Below, one piece after another: positions 14,217-50,006 of a DNA stretch of 64,000 bases. The notes below the pieces were generated by a model. The model searched no databases, was not told where the DNA came from, and saw nothing but the letters and a program-made list of their open reading frames with translations. Made by a program: the position numbers and the translations under genes. The first letter of the stretch is position 1; every line of letters begins with the position of its first letter. The stretch is from Girardia tigrina. Its lineage: Eukaryota. The DNA lies in NCBI GenBank assembly GCA_001938485.1, contig MQRK01227907.1, positions 49,577-113,576 on the forward strand, written 5' to 3'.

Positions 14217-14257
14217 GACGACGCGTTTCGAGATAATAAAAATCCCATCATCAGGTC
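14217..14257 (-). ncRNA. Minimal type I hammerhead ribozyme (PLE type) HHR1
   Basis: GAC-CUGAUGA-U-GGGAU-UUUUAUU-AUCUC-GAAA-CGCG-UC^GUC: complete core, 5-bp stem II, palindromic stem III, GUC cleavage triplet. Confidence 0.85.
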
Positions 14258-14259
14258 AC

Positions 14260-14434
14260 NNNNNNNNNNNNNNNNNNNNNNNNNNNNNNNNNNNNNNNNN
14301 NNNNNNNNNNNNNNNNNNNNNNNNNNNNNNNNNNNNNNNNNNNNNNNNNNNNNNNNNNNNNNNNNNNNNNNNNNNNNNNNNNNNNNNNNNNNNNNNNNNN
14401 NNNNNNNNNNNNNNNNNNNNNNNNNNNNNNNNNN
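14260..14434. other. Assembly gap
   Basis: Run of N. Confidence 1.
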
Positions 14435-14856
14435 AGGAATTCAAAACAAAATGTATTTTGTCGGTGTGGGATTGTTTTGCATTGGCCAAATGTGTTATTA
14501 TGCTGAGTGTCCCAAGTGTCAAACCTGGTACAGTTGAGAGAACACAACGTTCTTTCAGATTTCCATTTGGTCAGGCATTTCAGTCAAATTGCATCGATGA
14601 GATTTCGGATTGTTTTGAGTTTGATATACATATATATATACATATACATATATATATTTTTTAAGACTGTTAGAAAAGCTGTTTGCAGCGCAAACCTCGT
14701 CAAAATTCGAATCCATAAATAAAATTTATTCAATTAAAAAATGTTGCTTTTTTAAATATTCGCTTCTCGTTATTTCTGAATATTTAAGCAAAGTTTTTTT
14801 TTCAGGAGTTTTAATTTTACAATTTTCTAAATTTAACCGTATTATAAATATGTATG

Positions 14857-14901
<45 letters not shown>

Positions 14902-15109
14902 GCGTGTTTTTCTAAAGTGTATTTATTGTTTTTTGTAATTACGACTTAATAAAAAAAATTTTTTTTCCAAAAATAATAATTTGGGCTGGAAAGGGTTAAC
15001 TGCATCAACTGCAGTTTATTGTTTGTGAATTATTACAATTTGTTAGTTGTAGTGGATAATACAAAATTTGAAATTTGTGTGTGAATTATCAATTTTGAAT
15101 TTTGAAACT

Positions 15110-15470
15110 TTTTTTGAATGTCAGTTAATACAAATTGTGGTGGATTTAATATCGATATTCTAGCAAAAAATCAGTTTCTTATTAAAACGAACAAATTAAA
15201 AAATTGTTTAAATAGAAAATTTGATATAAGTAATTTTAAGATTTTGTGTTCACAATTTAATAATCCCTGAGAGGGGGTGATAAATAAAACATTGATGATC
15301 AAATCATTTGATCCTAAAATCGATGTGAAAGCAAAATCTTCATCAACTTTATCGAAAATATTTTTATGATTAAGAAATCACTTAATAATAACATAAAATA
15401 ACTTTCGAATGTAAATTTATCATTGTTAGTTTAATCTGATGATGATGGTTAAAGATATTTATTAAGAACA
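15110..15470 (+). mobile_element. Penelope-like element 3' end (GIY-YIG C-terminus plus truncated hammerhead)
   Basis: DISNFKILCSQF...TLMIKSFDPKIDVKAKSSSTLSKIF is homologous to the PLE fragment at 46.1-46.3 kb. ctgatgatgatggttaaa at 15437 matches the 5' half of HHR6/7, with the 3' half lost. Confidence 0.6.
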
Positions 15471-16815
15471 CTAATATTATTTTCGAAATTTTTACAAATC
15501 AATTAATATTTCCAATTTCAAATTATTAAACTTCGTGTTATTTAAAATATATCTGTTATATCTGTTAAAATATATATGTTATTTAAAAATATATATTTTA
15601 TTTTAAAATATATCGTAAAAATTTTATTAGTTAAAATTGAAATGAATTTTAATTATTTTTAAAAAATATTAAATTGATTTATTCATTTAAAAATTTAAAA
15701 TAAACTATTATAATAATTTTAAATGTAAAATAAATTTAGACATTAAACTGAAATTTAAATCAAATTAGTTCCAGACAGTAAGAATGAAACATCAATCGAC
15801 CTTCTGTGTAATGGAGACACAATCTCAAATCGACACACAACATTCAAACATTCCTCACACCGTCGAAATTAGTAACAATAAATTATCATGATCGTTTTTT
15901 GTATTTTAAAATCAATTTTCCAACAATTTTTAAATATTTATTTTATAATGTTAATCAAATAATAAATAAAAAAATTAAAAAAAATAAAAGTTATATTTAT
16001 AAGAATCGCTTTAATGTAAAGTTTTTGGAAATCTTCATAGAATAAATAATAACCCATACAAATTCGGCAAGTAATTCCCTCCTTTAAGTCAGCGATTTTA
16101 TATATGAACTTTAACATATTTAGAAAATGTAAACATTGAAGATACCGGCACCCCCCTGTAACCATGTGACACAGATATACATTCATCCATCGCAGTCAGC
16201 GTCAGTCTGCTAAGTTTCAAATTATCCCGATATTTATATAAGAATTACAATAAACATCAGGTCTTTGATACAGAAAATAATGTTGTTTTAATATGTTGGA
16301 ATTTGTTTAAATAAAATAAGATTTTTTCCATAATTATTGAAAGAAAATAATTTTTCTCAAGTGGATTATTTATGATAATTCAAATAATTAAATAATATAT
16401 TAATAGTAAAATCGTATTCAAATAAATAAATAAATATTGAATATCTCATTATATATTCATCCAATATAGTATTTTGTTAAAATTTAACAGTCAGTTTTGA
16501 TTTTTAATTAAAAATAAAATAATTTAATTAATTATAAATTTATGCTTTTTATAATAATTACGTGACTTGTCTAAAAATAACTTTTAACATAGTTATATTA
16601 CTTTTCTTACTGGAGCTTGGGACCTTTCAAGACGAGGCAAATGTCCATAGACATAATTTAGGTTTACTTAACCATTGAAAAGTCATTGAAAAGTCAAAAT
16701 TGCGGTTATTGGAACTCTACCAACTTGCATCGCAGGATATTAGTAATTAACTTGTTTCATGTTTAATGGTTATGTACAGTTTAAGAGATTTTTTTCAATT
16801 TATCCTACAATTAAA

Positions 16816-17534
16816 CAGTTCCCTGGAAGGTACTTGTATAGCAACTGTTATTGGCGCCCGGGTCGGTCTTAAGATTTGCCGCCCCGTCGTTGATAGTTCA
16901 TTATCCAGAACCCTCAATGACTGTCTATGCTAAAAATTAAATAGAGTTTTGTAATTTTTAGTCTTAAACTCCTTACTTTTATTTCATATTCTACTTGCAA
17001 TACTCTTATTCTTATAATAAAATTTACGAAGTAAAAAAGTGATTCAAAACTTTACAATTTCAATTGCAATTTACAAGCAAACTTATCGCGCTTTCATTTC
17101 TGTAAATTTATTGATAAAAATATCCAAATTCAGTTCAGCAGCAAGGTCCCTCTCAATGGAAAGGACTGCCAAGTCTATAAGCCTTGATTGACTCATTGTA
17201 GATCGGAAATAGTTCTTTATGAGCTTTATTTTGGAAAATGAACGTTCGCAGCTGGCAACGCTAATAGCCCGGGTAAGAAAGGTGCACAGTAAGATCACAA
17301 TATTATGTTCTAAAAGTCCGTTGATTCCGTCGTTCTCTGAAGCATGGAATAAATACAACAGTCTTCTTCTTTCGTTTTTAACTTTCTGTAATGGCCAGCA
17401 TTTCAGAATCTTAATTCTTGTTAAATTTTTATTCATTTTATTTTATCATTAATTTTTTACCTATTGAAAAATGCCGCCCGAGGCGGACCGACACCCCCCC
17501 CCCGCCCACCGCCCCCATCTCATACTACGCTACT
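16816..17534 (-). mobile_element. Deleted hAT element carrying the C-terminal dimerisation domain
   Basis: ORF 17083-17436 contains SVASCERSFSKIKLIKNYFRSTMSQSRL..LAVLSIE. It ends in a hAT-like terminus (tactacgctact) with GC-rich subterminal sequence. The left boundary is approximate. Confidence 0.85.
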
Positions 17535-18378: not shown

Positions 18379-18606
18379 CAAGGGTTCTCAACCTTGGCCC
18401 ATGGACCTCGAAGGAGTCATAAATAAACTAGGGATGTAATGTAAGATAATTTTAGAACAAGATAAAATAAAAAAAATACAGAATAAAATGCTCAAGTCTA
18501 TTTTTTGTTCGTAAAGTAAATATTTATATCGTTTGCTTAAAATTACGATGTACCTTGGAAATTGATGACCACTATCGTTTTGGTTTAGAGAGGTTGAGGA
18601 ACACTG
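18379..18606. mobile_element. hAT/Charlie-like MITE
   Basis: CAAGGGTTCTCAACC...GGTTGAGGAACACTG, flanked by near-TSD CTCTAAAC / CTCTAACG (NTCTA-type target). Confidence 0.75.
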
Positions 18607-20815: not shown

Positions 20816-23199
20816 AGCTTTGTCCTTCAATTAGCCAAACAAATCATTGTTCTTTTTTTATTTACAGGAAATTATTTATTATATATATTAATGAAAATTT
20901 TTAAACTATGATTTATTAAATCACTACACTTTATGTTAAATTTTACTTCAACTTTAATAATATTAAAACAAAAATTATTTAATATTTAATTTTACTTTAT
21001 ATTTAACTTTAAATTTAATAATATTTAAACAAATTAATTTAATGTTTAATATAACACAATGTGATGCTAATTGGAGGGCGGGGCTTATTTGAGCTTATAC
21101 GGTATATATATATATATATAGAAATATATAACAAATGTACCATACCAAAAACAGCACAAAATCTTTTTTCATTTTTTAATGTATATCATTAAATAAAGTT
21201 CTAGAAACTTTTTCGATATAATTAGCACTTTATTAATTGGCAAGCCTAAATGAAGAATATCAGTTAATCTAAGACTTATTTGTTTATATTTACGGATCAA
21301 TTATAAAAACAAACAAATGATAATTTAAACTCTTATAAATTGAATTTAATAAAATTTATTTATATTTAGACAGAGGGAACATAAAAATTAATTTTTTTCT
21401 AGTTCGAAAACATTCAGAATGAAATTTAATTTAATTTAATAAAAAGATATTCATAAATAAAGGATTAAGGAAGGTTTGAAAAGAGTACTCTTAGAAAACC
21501 GTTTTTTATGTTATTAATTCATGAAATATTCACAAATCTGTTGGAAATATAAATAGATGGAAATATTGAAAAAAGGAAATATGGAAAATTTCGAAATTAT
21601 CCTAAAGTGTCAATTCTGGAAAACTATAAAACAAAAAAGCTTAATACTCTAGAGTAATATTTCCAGTTGAAATCGGAATACATTAAATGGACATTGTGGG
21701 GTTCTTTTGTTCACTTGTTTCTGTTGACGCTGCAAAATATTCTAAAAGAAACTCGGAGGGAGAAAATGTTTGTTGGAAAACGAGAAAATATCGATTCAAT
21801 TAAAGAGGCTTTTCCAAAAAATATATTTAAAATTGAAAATTGGTTCCAATTATGCTCAAAGCAATGGAGAATATTTCCCTTAGAAAAATTTTCTACGTTT
21901 TAAATAACCTTACTCATCAAAAAATATTAAATATATTTTTTGAGTATTCCATTAGAGTACACATTCCTCGCAGATATCTGTTGTAGACAATTGTGCGATG
22001 CCAAATTCATCCATTTTTGTTGATTTATTAATTAAGTAATGTTTTAATTTGACATTATTTTTCGTAATAATAAAATAATAATAAAATAATAATAATCAAA
22101 ATTATCAAGCTCATCGATTTTTTTATTTATTAATTTCGAAGGTTTAATCATCATCTTCAAAACAAATGATTTAAAAGAAAGTTGATTACATATTGCAAGT
22201 AAACTTTATGTAATCGATTCGTCTTCATTACACAATTAAAAAATCTTAACAAAGTTGTATAGAGTACATTTGGAACATTAGATTTAGGATCCTTAGATTT
22301 TTTTATATATAACGCTTCACATGGAACTCTCTCGAAATAATTCTTAAATTGAGTGCTCAGAATTTTTAAAATTTGGATATTTGTTTCCCCTTTACACTGT
22401 TTTCTAAGTCCAGCAATATTACTTCCGATTCATATTGACTTTCTTCCTAGATTCTCTTACAAAGATGACTTGAAGTCTCAATCAATGCATGATGCACTAC
22501 ATTCATTACATGTATATTTGTAAACGAGACATGAAATGAATCCGAACGGCTATGTAAATTTATTGCCACACTTTAGTTTTGTAAAAGAAGAAAACCTAAT
22601 TACATTTGATTTATGTTCTAAATCTTCTTCTAAAAACAATAATGTTTAGAATAAAATTGTAAAAATTATATGATAAAATTATTTTATTTATAAAAAATTT
22701 AATGAAAAGAGAAAAAGAAGTTATAACAGTAAATCACAGTTTAAAAATGGAAACTTGGCTTAGAAAATCAACAAATAAATAAGTTACTTTACGTATAGAA
22801 TATGATTCGCTATATTTGGTATTTAGGTAATTGAGTAATTTGATTCAATATTGAAATAGACTAAAAGTATTGTTTTAAAACTGAGATTAACAAATAATAA
22901 TCTGTTTCTGAATAGGTATTGATGAATTTTACAATGATTTGTTAAAAAATTGTCAAATAATGAAAAAGTTTCGAAATAATGATTGAAAAAAATACTAAAA
23001 TTGTTCTGAATAGAGCTTGGTCATTAATAAAATGGTTGTGAGTAGAAATTGACAAATAATTTTCAATTTTGTAGTCAATTTTTTTTTAACTTTTGTACAG
23101 AAAATATTCAGGAGTTAGAATAATTAATTCAAGAACATCAAACAAATCAGGTAATTAATATTAAATTTAATTTTATTGGTAATAATATCATATTTAATA

Positions 23200-23643
23200 A
23201 TGGGCCTCCCATCTCTTTCAAGAATGTTATTGAGCCTATAGGTTCTTTAGATGCTCCACCCAAACCAAATAAGTCTATAAGCACCCAGATAGGCATCCTA
23301 TGAGGACGTTAGCCATTCGCTTCGGCGCACACTTTGGAAATTCAGTGAGAAACGACCAGTCATGGGTAGTGGTCCCATGATTCTGCATCCCTTAGGCTGT
23401 GTACATAGACTTTATACAACCGCGAAACGGGCGTCTGAAGGTTTCTCTCGCAGTTAGATCTGTAAGGTCCAGATGAGTTTCTAAATGACTCGCTTGAGTT
23501 GGGTTGTCTTCTGATATCACGTTCAGTGGTTGATTCCCTTCTTTTGATTGTCTGGGTTAATTGGTTCTGTTCGGAAATATTTGGACTATTTGTTCTTCTT
23601 CAATATTGTACGCTGTTCTGAGATGTCTGATGAGCCATCCTTT
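23200..23643 (-). mobile_element. 5'-truncated non-LTR retrotransposon 3' end with C2H2 fingers (diverged copy)
   Basis: KGWLIRH...FRRPFRGC...GMQNHGTTTHDWSFLT. Shares its 3' terminus ...GATGGGAGGCCCA with the copies at 43.6 and 51.6 kb. Confidence 0.7.
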
Positions 23644-23800: not shown

Positions 23801-24925
23801 TAATTATGATAAATGTTATGAATAAATAAATATAAATTTATCAATAGATGTTTAATGATGAAAGAGAGACAACATTATACATATATACTTTTTCGGTACG
23901 GAATATTATTTTAAAATTTGCTATATTATTCAATGCTTCAAAAATAGAATTTTTAATATTTTAAAACCTTCTTAATAATGTACAGTTAGAATGTATTGAA
24001 AGTATTAAAAATCGAAGTACTTTGAATTTTCTATTATTCTCACATGTTCTTTGGAAAGGAAACAATGGACCAAATAAACATTATTAATTCTTTAAAAACT
24101 GTATTAAAATATTTTAAAATATTTTAATTAAAATATTAAAAAAATAAAAACTTTTTCCGTTCTGTTACAACATATCGAATTAATTGATAATTCTACTTTC
24201 CCATTACTGGTAGCAATTAATTTAAACAAAAAAATGATAACGGCTTATTAAAACAATTTGAAATTGTCCTACCCTGTAATTAAAATTTTATAAAAAAAAG
24301 AATCGTTTTAATTTCCTCCTTTTGCTGAAGTAATGACGCCTGAGTTGAATATTTTTAATTATATATTAATTAGTAATAAACAATAGAAATTGAATTTTCC
24401 AATTTAATTTTAATTATTAATAAATGAAAAATTAATTTTAAAAAATTTAATAAAATAAAACATATCGATTTTCATAAAAAATTTAGTTTATTTTTTTATT
24501 TTAATTTTGTAAAAAAAAATTTTTGTTTTATATAATAAAATGAACTTTTAAATCAAGATTGAAAAAGAATATTTTTCTGATTTTGAAATTATTCGTTGTT
24601 TTAAAATGATTTTTTAAAAGGGGTATTTGAATATTTATACGAGGAGCGAAATTGATTTCTCTCTACCTTCCTGACATTCCTATACACTTAGTTATATCTT
24701 TTCACAATTACCAGTGTGAGGAATATTTGAATGTTTTGTGTTTAAATGTTGTATGTTGATTTGGAAATGTGTCTCTTCTACCCAGATGGATGATTAATAT
24801 TTTAATTCTTATTATCTAAAAATATGTAATGTTTAAATTTATTTCAAATAATTTTAAAATTTTAAATAAGTTAATGAATTTTTATAATCATTATTAAAAA
24901 GTGAACGCCATTTTTCACAATTTAT

Positions 24926-24970
24926 TTTCGTAATTAATTTCGGCGGATTACCCGCCATCTTCAGACTAAA
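24926..24970 (-). ncRNA. Minimal hammerhead ribozyme HHR2
   Basis: UUUAGU-CUGAAGA-U-GGCGG-GUAAU-CCGCC-GAAA-UUAA-UU^ACGAAA. Confidence 0.85.
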
Positions 24971-25080
24971 TTAACACTGGCTTTTTGCAGCTTATATATG
25001 AGAAAGGTGATTATGCAATCCATCATGTAATAAAGGCTCTATTTGAAAATGTTTAACAGAGAAGTTGAGTGTGAAGCTTG

Positions 25081-25859
25081 NNNNNNNNNNNNNNNNNNNN
25101 NNNNNNNNNNNNNNNNNNNNNNNNNNNNNNNNNNNNNNNNNNNNNNNNNNNNNNNNNNNNNNNNNNNNNNNNNNNNNNNNNNNNNNNNNNNNNNNNNNNN
25201 NNNNNNNNNNNNNNNNNNNNNNNNNNNNNNNNNNNNNNNNNNNNNNNNNNNNNNNNNNNNNNNNNNNNNNNNNNNNNNNNNNNNNNNNNNNNNNNNNNNN
25301 NNNNNNNNNNNNNNNNNNNNNNNNNNNNNNNNNNNNNNNNNNNNNNNNNNNNNNNNNNNNNNNNNNNNNNNNNNNNNNNNNNNNNNNNNNNNNNNNNNNN
25401 NNNNNNNNNNNNNNNNNNNNNNNNNNNNNNNNNNNNNNNNNNNNNNNNNNNNNNNNNNNNNNNNNNNNNNNNNNNNNNNNNNNNNNNNNNNNNNNNNNNN
25501 NNNNNNNNNNNNNNNNNNNNNNNNNNNNNNNNNNNNNNNNNNNNNNNNNNNNNNNNNNNNNNNNNNNNNNNNNNNNNNNNNNNNNNNNNNNNNNNNNNNN
25601 NNNNNNNNNNNNNNNNNNNNNNNNNNNNNNNNNNNNNNNNNNNNNNNNNNNNNNNNNNNNNNNNNNNNNNNNNNNNNNNNNNNNNNNNNNNNNNNNNNNN
25701 NNNNNNNNNNNNNNNNNNNNNNNNNNNNNNNNNNNNNNNNNNNNNNNNNNNNNNNNNNNNNNNNNNNNNNNNNNNNNNNNNNNNNNNNNNNNNNNNNNNN
25801 NNNNNNNNNNNNNNNNNNNNNNNNNNNNNNNNNNNNNNNNNNNNNNNNNNNNNNNNNNN
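25081..25859. other. Assembly gap
   Basis: Run of N. Confidence 1.
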
Positions 25860-25885
25860 TATAAGCTGCAAAAAGCCAGTGTTAA

Positions 25886-25930
25886 TTTAGTCTGAAGATG
25901 GCGGGTAATCCACCGAAATTAATTACGAAA
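25886..25930 (+). ncRNA. Minimal hammerhead ribozyme HHR3 (one stem II mismatch)
   Basis: Same as HHR2 except the stem II 3' strand reads CCACC. Confidence 0.78.
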
Positions 25931-26274
25931 ATAAATTGTGAAAAATGGCGTTCACTTTTTAATAATGAATATAAATTGTCATTATTTTTTAAATTCCTTA
26001 ATTTTTATAATATTTAATAAATAAATCAAATTAATATTTTTTAAATAATTAATTATCATTTTAATTATTATCCAATAAGTTTAGAGTGAATATTTATGTA
26101 AATTTAAATATTTATTTCCCCATTTACTAAAAAGTAATGAGAATTAAAACCATTAATCAATTTCGCTTTGAATGCAAATGTACGAAAGTTTTGACAAAGA
26201 TTGTCTTGAGGACAATCAAAATTGTTGTTTAAATAAAAATATAAAAAATCAAATTGGTGTTCTTAATAACCAGT

Positions 26275-28043: not shown

Positions 28044-28974
28044 TTAATTTCGGATAAATAAAATTATTTTAAAACAATTTTCTCCATTTTTAATTATTAT
28101 TTTAAAACCTGTTTTCTTTACTACAGTCTTCCATGAAATGGATCGCGCGCTGGGGAGTGCTGAAAAATGTTGTTTTGTTATTTTTCCAATTTGTTTGCTC
28201 ATTAAAAGATTGATTTTAAATGATTATCTTTTTTTTGCAATTTAGAAAATAAAAGATGGTTATAGATGAACTTTCCTGATGCAGTTATCGATGGTGTAAA
28301 AGTAAATCTTTTGTGATTTGAATTGGCTTTTTTTCAATAGAATATAGCATGAACCCTTGACGGCAATTGTTGTATTGGGTTCATGCTCAAAATATCGTAA
28401 CGTCTGATCGAAATTTATTATATTATCTGGTTTTATACTTTTACTGGTAATTAATGTCTGACAATTTGTGATAAAGGATATAGCAATGTTGACATAGTCT
28501 GTGGGAAGGGTTTTTGTGATAGTTTACCCAAGTAACACAAGGTCATGTCGTTCTCGAAATCTATAAATCCATGATTTCGAAGCCTCAAAATTTTTCAATA
28601 GTACCATTTAATGAATATATTTAATTCTTTAGAATCTGTGTACACCTCCTTTTCAATTATCTTATTTTCAATTTTTTATACAAGTGTTTTTTTATGAAAA
28701 CTGCCTTTCGTACGATATAGGCGTCTTTTACACATAGTCCTATTGAATTTCTGAATTTATATATAGATTACTCTTTGAACATCATTAAAAATATATATAC
28801 AATTTTAAATTGTAAAAAAATATCTAATAAAATATTAAAGAATCACTAAAGAAAATTCATTGTAAATAGATATATAGTCGAAAATTTTAATAATTTTCAA
28901 TTTCATTTGTCTTTTATTAGGTCTTTTATTTGTCTTTTACTTGGGTCGATGTTGGGGCGAAAGACCAACGGTTT

Positions 28975-32589: not shown

Positions 32590-35500
32590 CAAAATCATGT
32601 GCCATATTATGTTTAAATAAACATTAAATAATATGTTGATTCATCTATTTTGACACTGATTTGAATTTTTTGTTTGTTTGTATACGAAAATAATATTTTA
32701 GTCTACTTTCAATAGTCTCGCGCCCCACATGTTGGAGACCATTGAATTACACTATTTGTGTCAAATCAACAAAACAATCTTTTCAAACTACTATTTAAAA
32801 AACAGCATATTAAAAACATTTGGAGGAAGGAATATCTTCCTGAAAATAAAATAACATATTTTGTCGAGTCTGACAATGCACACTATATTTTAAAATAATA
32901 TTAATTATTAAATAGCTTATGCATCTAATTAAGCTTATATTATACATATTTTAAGAGCTCCTGAATCCCCTAGACAAATTTGAAAGATTTTCACAAATAC
33001 AAATGTTTCAAAAATAGTATGTTCAGTTTCTCACCCTTCCATATAACTTTTGTAAGACTTCAACAAATAAAAAAACTGATTCTTTTACAACATATTTTTC
33101 TATATGGAAGCTTTGACTAAAAATAAATACAGAGATTGGAATTTTAAAAAGATTGAATGTCTATTATTTTACATTTTTGCAGTTTTAACAATAATTTAGA
33201 AAATAAATATTTTAAAATTCATGAAATTTAAAGGCGAGCATAGACACTTGCAGCTCTTTGGTATATTTCATATTGGTTGGACAGAAAATTCTTGAATATT
33301 CTTGAAAATCAAAATGTTTACTAATGCGCTAAAAGATAAAGAATTCTTGATTTCAGTACACTGTCAGGTATTAATTTTATATGCAATGGATAATAATTAT
33401 ATAATGTATAACTATTTCCTGAATTGTAACGAGTAACGTAACCATTTTGATACTTATAAGTCACTAGTAAGTTTAAAATAAGTTGTGGTAACTTTTTCAA
33501 AAGAGCTTTTTTTAAGTAAATATACAAATTCTGAAGGTAACCAAAGATACTGTTACATGTGTGTGAGGAATATTTGGTGTGTAATTGTTTTTTGTAGTGT
33601 TTACATGTTTAAATGTTGTGTGTTGCTTTGGGATTGTGCCTCTCCTAACCAGATGGATGATCAATATTTTAATAATTATAATCTGAAACTAATTTATTCA
33701 AATTTAGATTTAATATTCAAATTTTTAATTTTTATTATTGCAACTTTTAAATAATTTTATTGATTTTATTTTTGTAAATTTTTAAATAGTTAAAATCAAA
33801 TTAATATTTAAAAATGAATATAAAAATATTTTATTTTATCCAATAAAATTTAAATTAAATATTTTTAAATAAAATAATTTTCTCAAGTATAGTTCAGATT
33901 ATAATGAGAGATACTGAAAAATTGAGTGATGGATTTACGTGAAAGCAATGCTATTGATCGTCATAAAGATGATAAGAAATGTGAATGTAATAAATGTTCT
34001 GTCAAATGTGTGAGTTCTCTTAACAATGTGTTTGTGGCCAAATCTAGATTAAATAAAACAAGTACTCCTTGATTTTAAAGAAATTCCCTTGTCGTTCCTA
34101 AGAAGTTTATTGTTGGAACATGAGCCAAAAAATCCATCAATCATTGCCTGGAAAATCCAGTCATGTTATGAGATCAAATTTTAATGTGTTAGTGTCCGAT
34201 GATATTTTGTGAGTTCTCTTAAGACATTATTAGGAACAAATGAGGAGTACATGACAGCGAGAGATATCAAAATACCGTACATTATTGTGGATAATAGAAA
34301 ATGGATTTTAAAGATAAGGCGGTGACTTGAAAAATGTCCGGAAATTGTGCACCTTGGAACAGATTTTGATGGAAACAAGGGACATTCTGGACAATTTATT
34401 GCAGTACTATCTTTGGTGTTTGATTCCTTCGCAGTCATGGACAATATGAAAATTGAATCTTAAATTATTTTTATGATATAATTGTAAATATTAAAAAGTT
34501 TTTTAAAAACCACCCTAAATTTTGAAGAATTTATATGAATTTTTAACGACGAAGACATTTGAAAGATTAAAACTTTTACAGTATTTGTTAAACTTTGCGA
34601 TTCTCATTAGCGTTAAATGGCAACTTATTCTATGGAAGCAGAAGATAATGTTAAATTTCATTGGAGTATTTTAATAGTAAATACTTCAGTTTGAATAGCA
34701 TCAATATATAATGAAAAGTGTACCACCATATGAAAACAATAGATTGGAAATTGGGATTAAAAATTTTAAAGATTATGCAAAATCCTTTAGGGTTACACTG
34801 ACGCCAATGCAAAAAGCGTTCCGTTAATGAATCTTAATTCGACTGTAATATATCTACATATACATGTAATTAACATTATAATATAGACGAAATTAAAAGA
34901 AAACAACGCCTTAAATTTATATTTTAATGAATGCATAAACGTAAAATAAATCAACAATTAATAAAATTACTTTAGTCATTAAGCACTACCTAAACCTCCA
35001 TTGATCTATACAAGTGTTCCTCCATAATTGTTAACTGGTGGTCATACCTTTTAACATTTATTTTCCTCTTACTCTATTTCATGGACATTCAGTACTTGGA
35101 AGACAAAAGATTAAAATGATCACTGTCATGAAAGATATCAAACGTATATTAAACTTTATAAAAACCTCAACGTACAAAAAAATTGAAAACGTTTTTTAAT
35201 GTTATAATGAACTCCAAACCAATATTAATTAATTAATTAATTGAAAATAAAATAAGTCGAAATCAATTAATAATGTATTTAACATCACGTTTAAGGCAAC
35301 CAAAAAAATTCATTTTATTTACAAATATATATATCTAACCAAAATATATATCTAACGTAATAATAAGTATACTCAAATTTTAAATAGGTTACCTTATGAA
35401 AAAATTTAAGATGAAACAATATGTAAACATTATACCCTTCCTAAATCCAGCAATTGGTTGTACCCTGTTAGAGAGAAAAGATCTTGAGGTCGTTGCAATC

Positions 35501-35680: not shown

Positions 35681-36465
35681 CTACGCTGAATACATATTAC
35701 CTACGGGATATACTGTTTGTTGAGTAGATAATTGATTGCTATGTATTATATACGGCGCATTACTCGTTGACATTGAAGATGAGTTATTTGATGAAACTTG
35801 GGATGGCTGATGAGATGAATAAACTTGACTAGATTGGTTTGGAGAATAAGAATTAATAGACACTCCACTAATTGAGTACGGTGGTATATTGTGATTGCCT
35901 GGATTGTTAGCAACCGTTGAAACTGTATCTGTGACACTAGTTGGCGGCGGCGGAGACGGTGTTGTATCAGAATCATACGGTACATTTGGATTGTGTGACA
36001 GGCAAGCATGATGTGAACAAGGATGATCAATTTCAGTACTATTAGGCGTTGTGTTGCTTTGGGGCATATACTGACCATGGCCCGTATAGTTATAGTTCAT
36101 AACTGCTGGAGTGTAGCCGGCTGCAAAAGCTGGATAATTTGAATTAAAAGGAGGACCACCTACAGAATTAGTTGGATATTCATTAGCAGGAACATACTGG
36201 GGCTGATAGCTTTTCGAACTGACTGTACTTGTAGGTAACATGTGTTGCCGTGGATTGGAGGCGTTTCTAGATCCCGAGGAACTCCCATTTGCACTAGAAG
36301 TATTTGTGGTGGTGATTGTCGTACCTCGACCAGCTCGGTTTTTGAAACTCGAGTCTTGGCGAAGTTTGCGCCGAATTAAACAGTACAAAACCGTCCCGAA
36401 ACAAATGACAAAAACCGCAATTGGCCCAATAATGTAAAGTGGAAAATTGTTGTTTTCTTTTACAT
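35681..36465 (-). CDS. FGFRL/ndk-like receptor, terminal exon: transmembrane helix plus kinase-less cytoplasmic tail
   Basis: tttttag|AT at 36465 (phase 1). Encodes DVKENNNFP-LYIIGPIAVFVICFGTVLYCLI-RRK (TM followed by a basic stop-transfer), then about 230 aa rich in S/P/N/Y, ending MYSA-TAG. Two Ig + TM + no kinase is the planarian ndk/ndl (FGFRL) architecture. The exact paralogue cannot be identified from sequence alone. Confidence 0.9.
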
Positions 36466-36719
36466 CTAAAAAAATAATATCAATATATATTATTTTAATT
36501 TAATACTTTGTGTTAATAAATTAATCTTAAAATATATTAAAAAACACTTATGCTTTAATTAAAAAAATTGTCATATTGATTTTCATTTTTACTTCAACAA
36601 TTTGGGTATCAGTGGTCTTAGATTATTCCATAAACTTATGTCGTACCCTATCTCACAGAACTGTATGATCTTGAGAGATTTAGCTGGAAGAGATTCTTTT
36701 ATTATTTCTTACAGTTTAC

Positions 36720-37250
36720 CTTTTCAATAGTCCGGTGCCATTAATGACTGAAAATGTATCTCGGTTATCTCTCTCCTTGATGGACGATTCGCCATGATAT
36801 TTGCTTGACTTGCTATGTATATAATGCGACAAATATAACTAGTTTGTCGGATCTGTCTTGGGTTTGGTTCTTTCATATCTATTGCAGGCTCTAAGGGCTT
36901 ATGATCTGAATATATCGTGAATTCTTGTGACTCCAAAATGTCCCTAAAATACTTAACATCATCGTGAACAGCGAGTATTACTCGGTCATATGTCGAGTAT
37001 CGTTGTTCTTTTTATTTTATAGAATGGTTGACAATTGACAAGATTTTATCATTTCCAGTTTATTCCAAGACTGTTTTCATAACTAAATTTGAAGCATTCG
37101 TGGTCAGTGTCAGTTTTAAATTTTCCAGGAGCATTTTCAAACTCATTGTATTTTGTAAAAATATTTGAATTTCGCCCATACATTCGCTTTCTCATAAACG
37201 TAACTCAACTTTGTCCTTGTAGTGAACATTTCCAACAAAAAATCAAACAA
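36720..37250 (-). mobile_element. Gypsy RT/RNase H remnant (intronic)
   Basis: LTLTTNAS (variant of TDAS), then QRYSTYDRVILAV..VKYFRDILESQEFTIYSDHKPL. Confidence 0.8.
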
Positions 37251-39427: not shown

Positions 39428-40528
39428 ATACTTAGGCTGTCCCAAAAGTCCTCAGGTGGCCATTAATATTTCACCAAATTTGGACTGAATATTATCCAGA
39501 CTGTCATAAATACTGTGTTAAAATTTCAAAGCATAAAATTAAAAAGTAAAATTTTGTTTTATTAAAGTATTGAAATTTTAAAAATGCTGCGAATTCAAAT
39601 CAAGCGGTTTTTAACAATGGAACCAAATAAATGTTGCCAGCGTTTTTTTGTTCTAACTCAAAGTAAAAGAGGATTCTCTGCTTCAGAAATTCTTCAGCAA
39701 CTTCAGCAGGCATGGGAAGACGCAAATCACCCAGCACTGAAAACTGTTCAACAATGGTTGACTGATTTTAAAAAAGAAAAGCGGACGTCCTTCGACGATT
39801 CATCAAGAAGTGGCAGGCCGTCATTAATAGATGATGAAAAGATTAAAGCAATCAAAGAAGTGATTGATGAAGCTCCACATGCATCTTTGCGTTATATTGA
39901 AAATGAACTTTCTTTAGGCAAAAATACAGTCCACAAAATTTTGCGTGAAAAACTTCGTTACAAAAAAGTTTGCTCTGTTTGGGTCCCTCACGAACTTTCT
40001 GCTATTAATAAACAAAAACACATTAACACTGCAAAGCATTATTATGAGTTGCTTCCGTATGGCCAAACACTAAATTCAGATCTGTACTGTCAACAACTGG
40101 ACCGTTTGAAGATAGCAATTGATGAGAAACGAAAAGAATTGGTCAATAGAAGAGGTGTTGTGTTCCATCACGACAACGCCAGACCACATACGTCTGTAGT
40201 GACTCGCCAGAAACTCAGGAAGCGTGGTTGGGAAGTTTTAATGCATCCACCATATAGTCCGGACGCCAAGCGATTACCACCTTTTTCTCGCATTGCAAAA
40301 TTTCCTGAGTGATAAGAAATTTGGATCAATAGAAGATTGTGAAAATCGATTACTACAGTTTTTCACCAATAAGGACCAAGACTTCTACGACATAGGCATT
40401 ATGAAGCTACCTTCGAAATGGCAACTAATTATACAACAAAACGGTGCATATTTCACTCCAAGAGGACAATCCGAAACATGTTAAATAAAGTTTTGAATTT
40501 CATGCCAAATGGATTTCGTTTTCCCCAA

Positions 40529-42468: not shown

Positions 42469-42532
42469 GATAATGGCATTTTTAATAATAATGAAAAGAA
42501 AGGCCATTTTTTAATATTAAATTTATTCGCAA

Positions 42533-42569
42533 TACATACGCGTTTCACCATTTCGGCATCTTCAGTGCA
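42533..42569 (-). ncRNA. Minimal hammerhead ribozyme HHR4 (sense to host pre-mRNA)
   Basis: UGCA-CUGAAGA-U-GCC-GAAAU-GGU-GAAA-CGCG-UA^UGUA. Stem II is weak (G-U closing pair). Confidence 0.75.
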
Positions 42570-42847
42570 ATGAAATAAAGTGATTAAGTGCTATTTATAT
42601 AGTTGAAAACTATTACATCATACGTCTCAAAAACATGCTTTTTTCTTTAAAAAAAAAGAAAAGTATTTTTAATGATATTTTAAAAAACTTTAATATGATT
42701 AGATATATCATCTAATCATATTAAAGTTTTTTAAAATATCATTAAAAATCCTTTTCTTTTTTTTTTAAAGAAAAAAAGCATGTTTTTGAGACGTATGATG
42801 TAATAGTTTTTCAACTATATAAATAGCAATTAATCACTTTATTTCAT

Positions 42848-42884
42848 TGCACTGAAGATGCCGAAATGGTGAAACGCGTTTGTA
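42848..42884 (+). ncRNA. Minimal hammerhead ribozyme HHR5
   Basis: Inverted twin of HHR4, with a GUU triplet. Confidence 0.72.
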
Positions 42885-42959
42885 TTGGGAATAAATTTAA
42901 TATTAAAAAATGGCCTTTCTTTTCATTATTATATATTATTATATATTTTATTAAGTCAG

Positions 42960-43600
42960 ATTTTGTCAAATGTTATGCATATGATATGGTTATGAAGCGA
43001 GCAAAAAATGTATAAATCGTTTTGACTCCATGTTCAGAGAGTATGCGAATGATGAAAAATCTCTCATTGGAACTGTGTAAAGCTTTTTAAAATCATGGAA
43101 CAAGAGAACTTAGCCTTGTTTACTCAGTATAGTTGTGCTATATAGAGATTTTATCAACCCTCTTTTTCCTTTCTAGCATTTTCCAAAGCATAAAGTCTTC
43201 ACAATCTCATCAGACGCAGGTCATTATCTTTCCTGGTGGTATGTTACTTACCTCTTAACTTGGAATTCGTTCCTTCCTTTGCTTCATTTTAATTTAGAAA
43301 CACCGTTTCTCGTCTCTCATAACAGTTTTGTAAAGTAATTGTTGTTTATGGATGACAAACAAGTGTTCCAAAGCAACAGACAATCTTCTCATCATATTCT
43401 TAACATGTTTAACGATTGTTCTATTTCAAAAGTGATTTAAGATAGTTTCCGTCGAAGTTAGAAGATTGCTCTGAAAAGGACCTGTCGTTGAATTCGAAAT
43501 TTCCAATTTTGCTCAGTCTTGAAATCTAAAGCTTCCTCTTCATACATGATGAAAATGTCTCTAACTGTTTTGGTAGCTTTGCGACTACGACTAAGATTCA
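42960..43600 (-). mobile_element. Decayed Penelope RT N-terminal half
   Basis: Fragments YDEKI, RIPxLRG and DFKKLYTVP (compare DVxSLYTNVP) occur in PLE order, with many stops. Confidence 0.45.
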
Positions 43601-43620
43601 AATAAAGTAACTATCGAAGA

Positions 43621-44150
43621 TGGGCCTCCCATCACTTTCGAATGGTATTGAGCCTCTAGGCTCTTTAGAGGGTCCACCCAAACTAAAGAATCGCTAGTAG
43701 CCCCCCGATAGGCCTCCTCCGGGGTCGGATAGTTTCGGTCTCCGAGATCTTTTCGGCTTCCCTGTGAGAAACGACCACCCATGGGTTGTATAGCCATGGT
43801 TCTGCATACCTTTGGCTGTATTCGTGGACTTCGTACAGCCGGGAAAGGGACATCTGAACTCCCCCCTTGCAATTAGATCTGCAATCCTAAAAGTCAGATG
43901 TGTTTCTTCAGTACCTATCGCTTCTTCCACCGCCGTCGAGATAGTCGGGGGGTCCGTCACGGATTGAATCTGGTTGCCTGGAATGTTGAGGTTTTCTACG
44001 ACTCTTTCTTATGTGGTATTTGTTGTACTGGTTTGCACTGGTGTCATTGTCAGTTCCCCAATTTCTTCTGTCTCCTCCAATTTATGATCCCGGTAGAGGT
44101 TCCTGGTCACCCCTTCGTTTTGTACTACTTTTTACATAGTGTACATAGTG
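43621..44150 (-). mobile_element. LINE 3' end with C2H2 fingers
   Basis: CTLCKK..H, FRCPFPGCTKSTNTAKGMQNHGYTTH, then the shared terminus GGGAGGCCCA. Confidence 0.75.
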
Positions 44151-44614
44151 TCGAAGATAATTATTTTCTCACCTTGATTTTTCATCTGTGTACCTTAAAA
44201 TTAAAGTAAAATTAAGTTTCTTAGAAAAAATGATCAAGAATCTTTGAATGGGTATTTACACTTTGCTTAAAAGAAGACAAAACGGCAAGAATAAGTATCG
44301 CATAAACAACTTGGTAACTTATAGAAAAACGCAATAATTTAACATTTTTTTCGCTAAAAACAAATATTGTCATGTCTCGAACATATGCGGGTTATACTTA
44401 TAAAATTATTCTAAATAAAATATTAGGGTTTACTCTAATTACAGCTTGTATTTAAGTAAATAAAACTTTTAAGGGGTTTTCTGTCCATTTGACATTAGCT
44501 GATTTGTTTTTCTACAGAAACTGAGGTTTTATCAATTTAAAAAATATAATATAAAATAAATAACAAAGTTAATGATTCAGTTATTTTATCTGTAATAAAA
44601 TAAGAATTGATTAA

Positions 44615-44941
44615 CCCCACAGCTGTATACTAAGCCTTTTATGAATATTTAGTTTGTCAGTTTCCATGAATTTTTTAAGTTTTAAAATTGAATTTTGGTT
44701 TAACTTCTAAATTTGTTCCCACATTGCAAAGATTTCTAAAAATATGAAAAAAGTGAAAGAGACATAATGAAGGTTTTTTGTATACATTTCTTAATTTTAA
44801 AGTTGTGCAAGGGATGAAAGATTTCGTTTCACGATTTTATAATACTAATTGAGCTATCGGATGTTGTAACATTTGGTTAAGTTCAAAAGTTATTCAAAAA
44901 AAAGCTTATGGCCCGATCTGACCGTAAAGGTCCTCAAGGGG
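44615..44941. mobile_element. Possible piggyBac-like MITE
   Basis: TTAA|CCCC...GGGG|TTAA. The TIR match is short. Confidence 0.4.
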
Positions 44942-45189
44942 TTAATCTATTTTCTACTTATAATTAAAAGAATTTCGGTCACATATTATCCTCTAAATTA
45001 ATATTATTATATCTTTTATCGTTTACACTTCACCAGTTTTTTATAAGCATCAAAAGGTTGAAAAGATTTTTTGTTTAATTGTAAAAATGATCGTCTAATA
45101 ATTCGTATAAATGTAATATTTAAAAAAATTATAACTAAAGAAATCCATAAAGTATTTATTTATATATTTTAAAACAAAATGTTGTGCAA

Positions 45190-45192
<3 letters not shown>

Positions 45193-45236
<44 letters not shown>
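45193..45236. repeat. (TA)n microsatellite; similar tracts at about 14142, 14858, 23768, 38198, 40531, 50008 and 62378
   Basis: Direct observation. Confidence 0.9.
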
Positions 45237-45238
<2 letters not shown>

Positions 45239-45959
45239 CGTATGTGTCACGAAATTTGTAAGTTCTGTTTTTGTGACAACTAAAGTGATGTTTTTATCAT
45301 TAAATTGTAACAATTTATATTTACATTATAATAGTAAAACTATGTAAATAATAATAAAAATTTATTAATAAATATAAATTGCTATTTATTTTTTTTTCCA
45401 TTTTCTTCAAATAAGTAAATACAATAAGTGAAAAATGTCATTATATTTTTAGATGAAAACAAAAATATTTTTTGTGAATAATTTTTGTTTTCATATTTTT
45501 TTCCATTTGCACTGTGGCAAAGATTGATTATTCATATACTCCCCCCGTTACGCCTTGCACAAATGGATATTCTTTCAATCTTCGACAAAATTTGTAATTA
45601 TTTATTAACATATAATTTAGAAAAAAAGTAGTATGTTTAAAATAGCTTTTCTGCAAAATATTTATATTTATGATTCATATAATATTATGTTTATTGAAGA
45701 TGATTGCTAAGATAGGAGGTATCAATTTATCCCCTGAAGGGTTTAATGAAACATGTTTCAGTTTGTATTCAGGTACAAGAAACGAAAATTTACACCAAAA
45801 CTTACATTATTTTATTTTCATAACAAATAGAAAAAACAAATTTTTAATTTTTTTAAGAAAATAAAACATTTTGATATATTACAGGAATTATATAAACATA
45901 ATATTCTAAAACTTTCTTCACATATAAAATAGTACAATAATCAATTTATTAAAAACAAA

Positions 45960-46350
45960 TAAACACCATTTAAAAATATATTTTGTGATAATATATTTCG
46001 ACGGTTTAACCGTCATCATCAGATCACTGATTATGTTCTTTTTCATTGCTTTTATATAAGAAATGAATGATTATGCAATCACTAACGTAAGTCTAATCGA
46101 AAACTCTTAACAAATTAGTTGAGAGTGCTGTTTGAACATTGATTTTCGGATCACATGATCTTATCAACAATGCTTCACATGACACTCTTCCAATAATTTT
46201 TAAAATGCTTGCACAAAATCTTAAAATCATTTATGCTCATATTACATTTACACGTTTTTTTATGCTCAGCAATATTACTCTTTTCCCCTTTTTGATTGTG
46301 TTCTTGGAATCTTTTGCAGAGATTGTAAGTTTTTTTTCAAGTTTATTTGT
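45960..46350 (-). mobile_element. Penelope-like 3' end: GIY-YIG endonuclease C-half plus pseudo-LTR
   Basis: KTYNLCKRFQEH..SNIAEH..DFKIL..EALLIRSCDPKINVQTALSTNLLRVFD*, followed by a hammerhead. Confidence 0.8.
45985..46027 (-). ncRNA. Minimal hammerhead ribozyme HHR6 (sense to host pre-mRNA)
   Basis: GUGAU-CUGAUGA-U-GACGG-UUAAA-CCGUC-GAAA-UAUA-UU^AUCAC, with perfect 5-bp stems I and II. Confidence 0.9.
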
Positions 46351-46708
46351 AATCAATTTATGTTAAAACTTTTAAGGTTTTACTTCTCAGTAATAGAAGG
46401 ATGAAGGAGAAGGTTTAGCAAATTTTATAAAAGTACTTTGCAGTTATCATAAACCTCTGTGATACATGAATAGTAGATTTTTTTAAAAGAAGATCAACTA
46501 CCGCTCTAAAGGTTCAGAAAATTATCGTAAGAACATAGAAAATAGATCATCACAAAGTGATAAAGGTCTCAAAGAATGAAATGTAAAAAACATAAATAGA
46601 AGAAAAAAACCTGATGATTAATCAGGTTTAAGCATGGTAAGACATATGGATGAATAAAAATGTTTTGAGAATAATTTTTTTTTATTTTGTTCAAATTCTC
46701 TGAATATA

Positions 46709-47930
46709 TTAGGTTGATGCATAAGTTTTTAGCCCTATATTTATTATAAACGAAATATAACTAAATAATTTAATTGATTATTTATTTAAAAGTAAATACT
46801 CGTATTTTCTAAGACGTTCAAAAATGAACAAAATTCATCTTCGACATTGCATGCTTTTCATGTTTAATTTAGGAAAAAACACCACCGAAACATTGGATCA
46901 AATTACACAAGCCTATGAAGCTGATACTGTTTCATATGCCACGGTCAAGAACTGATTCAAGAAGTTTAGAAATGGTGAGTATGACCTAGAGGACAAGCAG
47001 AGAAGCGGAAGACCTAAAGAAACTGAAGATTCGCAATTGGAGGCATTGCTTCAAGGGGATTCAACCCTGGTGACAAGTGATATGGCTAAGATCCTAGAAA
47101 TCGATCAATCAACGATGCAACGAAGACGGCAATGGGAAAAGTTTTGAAAGTTGGACATTGGGTTTCGCACCAGTTATCACATGCACATATTGCACAAAGA
47201 CTAAATTTATGCGTTGCACTTCTTTCACGTCACCGCCGTAAATCGTTTTTGTGGAGGATTGTCACCGGGAACGAAAAATATGTGTATTACGAAAACCCAT
47301 AGCGTAAAGGATCATGGGTAGATGCGGGTCAACCTTCAACTTCAACGCTAAAACCTAATCTTCATAGCAAGAAATTGTTACTCTGCATATGGTGGGACAT
47401 GAAGGGAGTCCTCTATTATGAGTTACTTAAACCCGGAGAAACAATCACGGCACAACGCTACAGTGTACAGTTGTTGAAACTGAGCGAAAAAATCAAAGAA
47501 TTGCGGCCGCAACATGTACATTCGATGAAAAAAATCATCCTACTTCACGATAACGCTACACCACATGTTGCGAAAGCGACAAAAAATAAATTTTTGGAAC
47601 TGGGATGGGAGGTTTTACCGCATCCGGCGTATTTTCCGGACATTGCTCCATCCGATTGTCATTTGTTTTGCTCTCTACAACATATTCTGGCTGGTGAGCG
47701 ATTCAAACAAGAAAGTGATGTGCGAAATTGCATGGATGAATTCATGGCATCGAAAAATTTTTTCAAACCAGAAAAATTTTTCACCGATGGAATTAGAAAA
47801 TTACCGGAAAGATGGCAAAAATTAATTGATTGTAACGGCGAATACTTCACCGATTAATATTTTGTAGTTCCTTTAGAAATTCTTTGATAAAAGTATTAAA
47901 AATAGGCTACAAACTTATGCATCAACCTAA
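46709..47930 (+). mobile_element. Full-length (1222 bp) mariner with a disabled transposase
   Basis: TA|TTAGGTTGATGCATAAGTTT...AAACTTATGCATCAACCTAA|TA. ATG at 46824 and stop at 47857. Motifs IVTGNEK (D>N), HDNATPH and YFPDIAPSD. Internal stops and a frameshift are present. Confidence 0.95.
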
Positions 47931-48539
47931 TATTTAACATATATAACAAGCAAAATGTTTTCAAAAACAAAATTTTTCAACTAAACTTTAACCATCATAA
48001 AACGACATGCAATTTTCTCATCACTTTTGTTGATGTACATTCTGAAAGCTGCCCGAGAGCAACAGTCTCATTATTTCCATGTTGCAAAAATATAATTATT
48101 TATATATTATGGAAAATAATATTCAGAAATTCGATAATATAACCGACATAAAGAATATTACATTAGAATTAATAATATATTTATTAAAATAATGTTCCTT
48201 TTTATTAAAAAAATAATTTCCTATTATTGTTTTTATTTAAACAAAAATTTAATTTATTAATAATTTTAATAAAATTTTTAAAATACTGTTTTTATTGTAT
48301 ATATATATATTTAATATTTGTATTTTTATATATTTATATATATTTATATTTTATATTTAATATTTTGGAAAAATAATTTTGTTAAAGCCTTTTTAAGAAA
48401 TTAATAATTGTACATGTTTCAGAAAATCTTTTTCCATCATCTACAATTTAATTTGTTAATATACCTGTTTTATAAAATAAAGTTAAAGCGGATAATTTAT
48501 TTATTCATTTCTCTTAATTGAAGATATTGTTGGATAATA

Positions 48540-48781
48540 ATGGCAAAATGTTTAAATAATTAATCAAGGCCCTTCTGTAAACCATAAAACTCATCCTTTG
48601 AAATATAAGAGATTGTATTTTTACAATGTGACCAATGATCAAGAACCTTATTCGATCGACTCAATTGCAAATGCTCACTAAGACGAGTTTTAAAATGACG
48701 ATTTGTCTTTTCAATGTACAAGTTTTTACACCTGTGACAATTAAATTTATGAACGGGTGGAAAAACTTGTACATTGGAAAA
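48540..48781 (-). mobile_element. Penelope GIY-YIG fragment with a terminal foldback
   Basis: HKFNCHRCKNLYIEKTNRHFKTRLSEH..DH..HC. Inverted repeat of about 25 bp at 48708-48732 / 48756-48781. Confidence 0.85.
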
Positions 48782-48784
48782 CTT

Positions 48785-49131
48785 GTACAAAAGAAGGAGC
48801 TGAACAGACACATGAAAAGGGACCACGCGGTGTCCACTTCCGCTAATCCTGATCAGCTCAATGAGATACAACAACAGCAATTGCCATTCCCATGTACACT
48901 ATGCAAAAAGTCGTACAAAACGAAGGGGTGGCTGACCAGGCACCTCTACCGGGATCATAAATTGGAGGAGACAGAAGAAATTGGAGAACCGACAATGACA
49001 CCAGCGCAAATGAGTACAACCACAGAAGAAAGAGTCGTAGAAAACCTCAACATTTCAGGCAACCAGATTCAATCCGTGACGGACCCCCCGACTATCTCGA
49101 CGGCGGTGGAAAAAGCGATAGGTACTGAAGA
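48785..49131 (+). mobile_element. LINE C2H2-finger region (longest copy, cut by the gap)
   Basis: QKKELNRHMKRDH..FPCTLCKKSYKTKGWLTRHLYRDH..TDPPTISTAVE. Confidence 0.75.
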
Positions 49132-49181
49132 NNNNNNNNNNNNNNNNNNNNNNNNNNNNNNNNNNNNNNNNNNNNNNNNNN
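49132..49181. other. Assembly gap (50 N)
   Basis: Run of N. Confidence 1.
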
Positions 49182-50006
49182 TTTCTTATATAAAAGCAAT
49201 GAAAAAGAACATAATCAGTGATCTGATGATGACGGTTAAACCGTCGAAATATATTATCACAAAATATATTTTTAAATGGTGTTTATTTGTTTTTAATAAA
49301 TTGATTATTGTACTATTTTATATGTGAAGAAAGTTTTAGAATATTATGTTTATATAATTCCTGTAATATATCAAAATGTTTTATTTTCTTAAAAAAATTA
49401 AAAATTTGTTTTTTCTATTTGTTATGAAAATAAAATAATGTAAGTTTTGGTGTAAATTTTCGTTTCTTGTACCTGAATACAAACTGAAACATGTTTCATT
49501 AAACCCTTCAGGGGATAAATTGATACCTCCTATCTTAGCAATCATCTTCAATAAACATAATATTATATGAATCATAAATATAAATATTTTGCAGAAAAGC
49601 TATTTTAAACATACTACTTTTTTTCTAAATTATATGTTAATAAATAATTACAAATTTTGTCGAAGATTGAAAGAATATCCATTTGTGCAAGGCGTAACGG
49701 GGGGAGTATATGAATAATCAATCTTTGCCACAGTGCAAATGGAAAAAAATATGAAAACAAAAATTATTCACAAAAAATATTTTTGTTTTCATCTAAAAAT
49801 ATAATGACATTTTTCACTTATTGTATTTACTTATTTGAAGAAAATGGAAAAAAAAATAAATAGCAATTTATATTTATTAATAAATTTTTATTATTATTTA
49901 CATAGTTTTACTATTATAATGTAAATATAAATTGTTACAATTTAATGATAAAAACATCACTTTAGTTGTCACAAAAACAGAACTTACAAATTTCGTGACA
50001 CATACG

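Follow-up and report, generated by a model that had tools for sequence, protein, structure and literature searches.

We analysed a 64,000-nucleotide stretch of the Girardia tigrina genome (contig MQRK01227907.1, positions 49,577 to 113,576 of the forward strand; hereafter the window), a gapped draft sequence of ~27% G+C that is full of mariner, hAT and other remnants. Seven minimal hammerhead ribozyme (HHR) motifs in the window are very probably type I hammerheads in the pseudo-long terminal repeats (pseudo-LTRs) of canonical Penelope-like elements (PLEs), which encode a reverse transcriptase (RT) followed at the C-terminus by an endonuclease (EN) of the GIY-YIG type, and the 5'-truncated element ends that carry them are most likely inert. 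The seven motifs are four independent insertions, probably at six loci. The ribozyme core contains an AUG, which at one insertion is the first codon of the element's own open reading frame (ORF). The motifs were located as follows.

HHR1, 14217-14257, minus strand: CGCG type; predicted cleavage after 14220
HHR2, 24926-24970, minus strand: UUAA type; AUG at 24958
HHR3, 25886-25930, plus strand: inverted copy of HHR2; one stem II pair is a C.A mismatch
HHR4, 42533-42569, minus strand: CGCG type
HHR5, 42848-42884, plus strand: CGCG type
HHR6, 45985-46027, minus strand: UAUA type; perfect stems
HHR7, 49218-49260, plus strand: flank identical to that of HHR6
Predicted cleavage sites: 14220, 24932, 42537, 42880 and 45990

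All seven motifs showed the core CUGA(U/A)GA-U-stem II-GAAA-palindromic tetramer-UH, flanked by stem I in type I topology, and carried a self-complementary hexamer (A-NNNN-U) at the stem III region. The original prediction, made from the sequence alone, had listed seven motifs with a common layout and four sequence types, and each (7/7) was found at the given position and strand and fit that layout. It had also held that the stems pair in every type. Pair-by-pair inspection of the seven motifs confirmed this for stem II (4 to 6 pairs, one mismatch in HHR3) in each type, and qualified it for the C.A pair of HHR3, an A.G mismatch at the third pair of stem I in HHR2/3 and a G.U pair in HHR4/5; stem I comprised 3 to 5 pairs. 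In the standard hammerhead numbering (A9, G10.1, 11.1), an extra U lay between positions 9 and 10.1 in 7/7 motifs, and pair 10.1-11.1, usually G-C, was G-C in 5/7 motifs and G.U in HHR4/5. The cleavage triplets were AUU (four motifs), GUC, GUA and GUU, so that 5/7 end in U.

A descriptor search, which the original prediction had proposed, recovered 6/7 motifs with an unbroken stem II and missed HHR3 for its C.A mismatch. The palindromic-type descriptor had no match across 300 Markov-simulated windows (orders 1, 3 and 5). Rfam gave no hammerhead match in the window (E up to 5) or in two 201-nt stretches (E up to 10), and its matches in the window were noise from hairpin (microRNA-like) and small nucleolar RNA families.

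We gathered 264 PLE proteins in all and built a profile from the first 137. The stop-free piece 22160-22429 retrieved two proteins, one of which consists of RT followed by GIY-YIG. The parent family proteins P0002 and P0147 each have a single ORF with RT and then a C-terminal GIY-YIG, and P0147 is intact at 841 aa. An alignment of seven family proteins showed a DKG motif, CCHH in the EN and no cysteine-rich linker between RT and EN. Judged by clade features in PMC8557442 and PMC3846280, the families are Penelope/Poseidon-like. The 137-protein profile detected GIY-YIG ends at 15196-15345 (plus), 22292-22567 (minus), 46094-46324 (minus) and 48575-48754 (minus), with a best E of 0.63 in the reversed-window control. 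These remnants were detected only with the profile of retrieved PLE proteins: a Pfam search of 181 stop-free window fragments showed no GIY-YIG and no PLE RT, its matches being mariner, hAT, Ig, zinc-finger and one LTR-type RNase H. A PDB search with P0147 gave weak retron RT matches only, and a word-based homolog search with the GIY-YIG piece at 48.6 kb gave no match. Separate protein clusters matched HHR2/3, HHR4/5, HHR6 and the older relics described below, which bears out the earlier proposal of several PLE families; PLE origin was tied to PLE proteins for three of the four sequence types, with HHR1 assigned from its motif and the position of its 3' end.

Self-comparison of the window showed three inverted pairs (HHR2/3, HHR4/5 and HHR6/7) and one single motif, so the seven motifs represent four insertions. 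Each was a 3' end with heavy 5' truncation that ran from the end of the GIY-YIG ORF through a stop, 70 to 117 nt and the hammerhead to the ORF's first 22 to 25 codons; an inverted pseudo-LTR on the 5' side, a tail and target-site repeats of 12 bp were frequent additions. The location in a pseudo-LTR is firm for HHR2/3 and HHR6/7 and weak for HHR4/5. The original prediction placed most motifs next to GIY-YIG or RT remnants. This is true of HHR6, which has a sizeable GIY-YIG remnant, and failed for RT, of which the 137-protein profile found none; upstream of HHR2 and HHR4/5 only the final 13 and 8 codons, respectively, of a PLE ORF remain, and HHR1, HHR3 and HHR7 have a gap upstream.

The HHR2/3 insertion showed all four hallmarks (pseudo-LTRs, inverted 5' copy, tail and target-site duplication).

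24889-25999: HHR2/3 PLE insertion, a 5'-truncated copy on the minus strand and an inverted pseudo-LTR on the plus strand
24877-24888, plus strand: target-site duplication, left copy, 12 bp
26000-26011, plus strand: target-site duplication, right copy
25039-25080, minus strand: final 13 codons of the PLE ORF with its stop, truncated at the gap; 13/13 residues equal the C-terminus of the P0147 cluster

A 12-bp repeat arose by chance at 1/400 random AT-rich position pairs. HHR2 lies 74 nt past the ORF stop, and a 779-N gap conceals the middle of the insertion. Translation from the HHR2 AUG gave a peptide identical to the start of P0147 at 25/26 residues, and that from the HHR3 AUG gave one identical to P0147 1-37 at 34/37 residues. 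The HHR3 arm exceeds the HHR2 arm by 32 nt, corresponding to the PLE tail. The whole arrangement is the structure drawn for Pen2a in PMC3846280. The flanks of the insertion match adjoining parts of a dispersed repeat at 33606-33864. This AT-rich repeat of ~270 bp occurs at 15587-15851, at 24739-24888 with 26000-26117, and at 33606-33876; the HHR2/3 element inserted into one of these copies, and another lies immediately after the PLE relic at 15 kb.

HHR6 closes a 5'-truncated PLE copy, and HHR7 lies in an inverted copy of its surroundings.

45950-46349, minus strand: 5'-truncated PLE copy of 400 bp with the GIY-YIG C-terminal half, spacer, HHR6 and first 22 ORF codons
46321-46096, minus strand: GIY-YIG C-terminal half of the HHR6 copy, with one frameshift
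45938-45949, plus strand: target-site duplication (12 bp) flanking the HHR6 copy; its second repeat is at 46350-46361
49182-51624, plus strand: inverted copy of 43621-46063, 2443 bp; carries HHR7 and starts at a 50-N gap

The spacer between the GIY-YIG C-terminus and HHR6 is 70 nt, and the last 31 GIY-YIG residues before it are identical (31/31) to P0259, P0263 and P0264. Repeats of 12 bp were found by chance in 13/1000 random pairs with an equal search range. Since the HHR6 copy is bounded by these repeats, the sequence beyond 45950 is host flank, yet HHR7 shares it for 2.3 kb. The two arms are identical over their first 2344 bp, including an equal-length (TA)22 run, and the four differences are all confined to the final 100 bp, within a dispersed zinc-finger repeat; the gap at which the right arm starts also truncates an oppositely oriented copy of this repeat. 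HHR6 and HHR7 are thus likely one locus, a segment between two inverted repeat copies that was assembled both ways, and its double appearance is probably a mis-join or an inversion haplotype. We consider it rather unlikely that they are two real loci, created by a recent 2.4-kb inverted duplication or by PLE-driven 3' transduction. The outer ends of both arms do enter different unique sequence without a gap, and PLEs are able to carry host DNA (PMC3846280). However, the 2344/2344 identical positions with differences confined to the repeat, the start of the right arm at a gap cutting the repeat, and the fact that the HHR6 copy has its own target-site duplication, one copy of which was duplicated with the arm, all fit the flipping of a segment that lies between two copies of the repeat in inverted orientation. 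The long arms showed no target-site duplication. Inverted PLE ends of this kind cause gaps and double assembly, so motif counts from draft genomes overstate the number of independent events.

The 3.1 kb between the arms (a PLE end, a mariner and a second PLE end; window 43621-51624) may be wrongly oriented. The GC-rich dispersed repeat at their ends encodes C2H2 zinc fingers and occurs at 48770-49131 (plus), 51099-51624 (plus), 43621-44146 (minus) and 23200-23465 (minus). Three of its copies end at one 3' motif though no RT follows, and the repeat may be a short non-autonomous element. We take it to resemble the N-terminus of an R2-type non-LTR element; a database search with the zinc-finger ORF returned generic C2H2 clusters.

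The HHR4/5 and HHR1 insertions comprised the following.

42485-42932, both strands: two head-to-head pseudo-LTRs with HHR4 and HHR5, a 448-bp palindrome of 96.5%
42708-42734, palindrome centre: last 8 codons of the PLE ORF; 8/8 residues and stop equal the P0028 C-terminus
14178-14259, minus strand: PLE-type 3' end carrying HHR1; this end stops at a (TA)18 run 71 nt past A9

HHR4/5 is composed of two extremely truncated PLE ends, head to head, and inversion is the one hallmark seen there, as the target-site duplication is at HHR6. The C-terminal match to P0028 had an E of 0.013 in the 264-protein set, and the ORF end lies 117 nt ahead of the core. HHR1 starts 2 nt from a gap, and its upstream part is lost in 175 Ns; its motif and end position point to a PLE origin.

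The A9, extra U and G10.1 positions read AUG in 7/7 motifs. This AUG is the ORF start in HHR2/3, where it is the first codon of P0147, and the same is supported for HHR6/7. Of 1956 places scored with a profile built from four other PLE N-termini, the HHR6/7 peptide came out on top (18.5 bits vs 10.2 for the next), and the peptides of HHR1, HHR2/3 and HHR4/5 fell outside its top 14. We also back-translated PLE N-termini and asked if AUG-stem II-GAAA-palindrome-UH could encode them, using the 4-nt-palindrome form with an unbroken stem only. Compatibility was found for 8/45 N-termini compared with 5/1046 internal methionines, and 7/8 of the compatible N-termini come from the four clusters most closely related to P0147, each of them with a stem II of 15 nt. 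Furthermore, 4/5 further database families of this kind allow 5 to 6 Watson-Crick pairs in stem II, as opposed to 36/3000 random pentapeptides with the remainder fixed; permutations of a family's own residues allowed 5 to 6 pairs in 1/120 to 9/60 cases across those families. The tested families are related and hence are not independent trials, with residues 2 to 6 differing completely. Two results speak against a general overlap: 37 more distant N-termini were incompatible in this narrow test, and HHR4/5 is an exception in which the A9 AUG meets a stop at codon 5. The HHR4/5 core AUG, at 42559 (minus) and 42858 (plus), opens a four-codon frame, and a second AUG inside stem II opens another frame that by eye is like PLE N-termini and was not picked up by the profile, a lead only.

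The conserved overlap suggests that the ribozyme could remove the start codon from the element's own mRNA. A9-U-G10.1 would be the initiator AUG, with stem II, GAAA and the palindrome as codons 2 to 9; this would account for the conserved extra U, for which the original description gave no reason. In an intact element with tandem motifs, two of them in a single RNA would pair via the self-complementary hexamer to supply the absent stem III. From assays published for other PLEs we expect a cut after codon 9, probably with help of the PLE protein. Such cleavage would remove the cap and start codon, and an initiating ribosome would unfold the ribozyme, so that translation and cleavage would be mutually exclusive. 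Protein-assisted cleavage, as in PAc (Poseidon of Anolis carolinensis; Frangieh et al. 2024, PMC11167929), would then let the PLE protein limit its own synthesis by negative feedback, and only uncut or re-circularised RNA would be reverse-transcribed. The overlap itself is shown at HHR2/3 and well supported at HHR6/7; that the hammerhead is dual-coding and a translation switch in this PLE subclade is a tentative idea, its regulatory role being the conjectural part.

The insertions bear on the template. In all four types the 3' end lies 67 to 75 nt past A9 (102 nt including the tail), and the insertions extend 40 to 52 nt past the predicted cleavage site (75 nt with the tail), so the reverse-transcribed RNA was uncut or re-ligated there. 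This agrees with the PAc result (PMC11167929). The copies in the window would be by-products of insertion. No same-strand neighbour carries a matching palindrome, the pairs lie on opposite strands and their transcripts would form long hairpins; the copies are therefore probably inert. This departs from the original prediction, which saw self-cleaving RNAs seeded across the locus. Published PLE minimal hammerheads showed no cleavage as monomers and weak cleavage as dimers (PMC4209133), and the PAc motif cut only with PAc protein, with cutting dispensable for in vitro insertion (PMC11167929).

We consider it improbable that the genomic copies are active ribozymes cutting host transcripts. HHR4 and HHR6 apparently lie in sense in a long intron of an Ig-domain transmembrane gene, given the Ig-domain exons at 62905-63369 and 52586-52939 and the transmembrane/tail exon at 35684-36499, all on the minus strand, and HHR6 has perfect stems. 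However, HHR4 (CGCG) and HHR6 (UAUA) could not form a joint stem III, and the HHR4 palindrome would give a hairpin of 220 bp. In PMC4209133 single motifs did not cleave, PAc depended on its protein and no RNA-seq ends were seen at its site (PMC11167929), and the joining of the exons into one gene is itself presumed. Non-LTR retrozymes or satellite-type canonical type I hammerheads are a still more remote explanation. They would share the type I topology with a palindromic short stem III, and retrozymes may derive from PLE pseudo-LTRs (bioRxiv 10.64898/2026.07.22.740005), but none of the motifs sits in a tandem array of 150-450-bp units, the motifs sit between C- and N-terminal codons of PLE ORFs, and Rfam found no hammerhead. 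Chance matches, which the low G+C content might favour, are practically negligible: a chance origin was refuted by the simulated windows described above, and the motifs keep a constant position between ORF stop and ORF start.

Several observations nevertheless weigh against reading the motifs as PLE hammerheads. For HHR1, 3, 4 and 5 the fold of minimum energy differs from the hammerhead, and AU-only dimer helices are very weak (-0.2 to -0.8 kcal/mol vs -7.5 for CGCG). Self-cleavage of the window motifs is predicted only. The 137-protein profile found no PLE RT remnant in the window, the intact families are represented by their proteins, and the dimer partner in a full element is presumed. At HHR4/5 no target-site duplication was found, and the PLE link depends on 8 residues; no PLE protein match was found on either side of HHR1; and no hammerhead was found downstream of the GIY-YIG remnant at 48563-48780. 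We still regard the motifs as very probably PLE pseudo-LTR hammerheads, in truncated ends that are most likely inert.

Older PLE ends were also present.

22122-22567, minus strand: older PLE 3' end, GIY-YIG remnant 22238-22567 and decayed hammerhead ~22122-22166
15196-15495, plus strand: older PLE 3' end, GIY-YIG C-terminus 15196-15363 and hammerhead relic
48563-48780, minus strand: GIY-YIG remnant belonging to another PLE family, of which 48708-48780 is a short 5' inversion

In the decayed hammerhead at ~22122-22166 (minus), C3 is changed to U and stem II is broken, and in the relic at 15428-15495 (plus), CUGAUGA-U-G is intact (15436) and stem II is disrupted. The spacings from the GIY-YIG ends to these motifs are 66 and ~74 nt, as in the intact copies; both motifs had been missed in the earlier motif list, which was thus incomplete. 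No target-site duplication was found at the 22-kb or 48-kb relic.

Elsewhere in the window, 31932-32577 is an imperfect palindrome of 650 bp (70%) that contains tandem units of 14, 20 and 41 bp, like a miniature inverted-repeat transposable element or a foldback element. Direct repeats of 350 to 380 bp, 99% identical and with mariner-like fragments, lie at 53189-53566, 58596-58942, 58931-59306 and 59308-59654, possibly another assembly duplication. The regions 46761-47857, 39566-40481, 28878-29327, 43461-43610, 63596-63874, 17086-17442 and 36727-37011 hold remnants of mariner/Tc1 transposases, a hAT dimerisation domain and a fragment of LTR-type RNase H. On the minus strand, 62905-63369, 56441-56587, 52586-52939 and 35684-36499 are candidate exons for a single-pass membrane protein with Ig domains and a tail of low complexity. 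No kinase domain was seen in the window, and a word-based search with an Ig exon found no homolog. The architecture may be FGFR-like.

Minimal hammerheads of metazoan PLEs, thousands per animal genome, have been published (Cervera and De la Pena 2014, PMC4209133), as have paired motifs on opposite strands 100-700 bp apart, and the window motifs are further members of this class. Compared with the motifs of that paper, the window motifs have a 4-nt palindromic insert (the Drosophila/rotifer-like variant) rather than an absent stem III, and HHR4/5 have G.U at 10.1-11.1. The density, 6 loci in 64 kb of one selected window, is ~10 times the Schistosoma mansoni average (~3,300 in 364.5 Mb). The extra nucleotide is listed there as a conserved feature, and the main text mentions neither an AUG nor a start codon.

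Lunse, Weinberg and Breaker reportedly described dimer cleavage of PLE hammerheads and may already have noted the AUG overlap. We found no paper generalising this overlap in a literature coverage short on subscription papers, figures and supplements. Should the overlap be what lies behind the conserved core variant, and should it serve as a translation switch, a eukaryotic retroelement would be using a self-cleaving RNA in a new role.

Comparable anatomy is described in PMC8557442, PMC4209133 and PMC11167929. The likeness to Adineta vaga Penelope/Poseidon elements (Arkhipova et al. 2013, PMC3846280) extends to the ~840-aa ORF, inverted pseudo-LTR, 31-bp tail and target-site duplication (12 bp here vs 8-10 bp there), and to a pseudo-LTR that includes the first codons, solo pseudo-LTRs and palindromes; ribozymes are undescribed for those elements in the accessible portion of that paper. 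Non-LTR retrozymes (PMC7229834; bioRxiv 10.64898/2026.07.22.740005) are likewise type I hammerheads in animal repeats with a proposed PLE origin. However, they are short non-coding units arrayed head to tail; the window motifs are PLE ends, dispersed or inverted. In PAc the ORF starts at stem II and the cut falls 26 nt downstream (PMC11167929). PAc, a single lizard PLE, was purified and assayed, in contrast to the truncated ends analysed here; the AUG overlap was here traced through several divergent families; the ends past the AUG measure 67-75 and 102 nt here vs 111-118 nt for PAc. The window ties minimal hammerheads to intact, apparently young PLE families, including one with an 841-aa protein whose first codons are the ribozyme, and provides a second system beside PAc for the role of PLE hammerheads, called unclear in PMC8557442.

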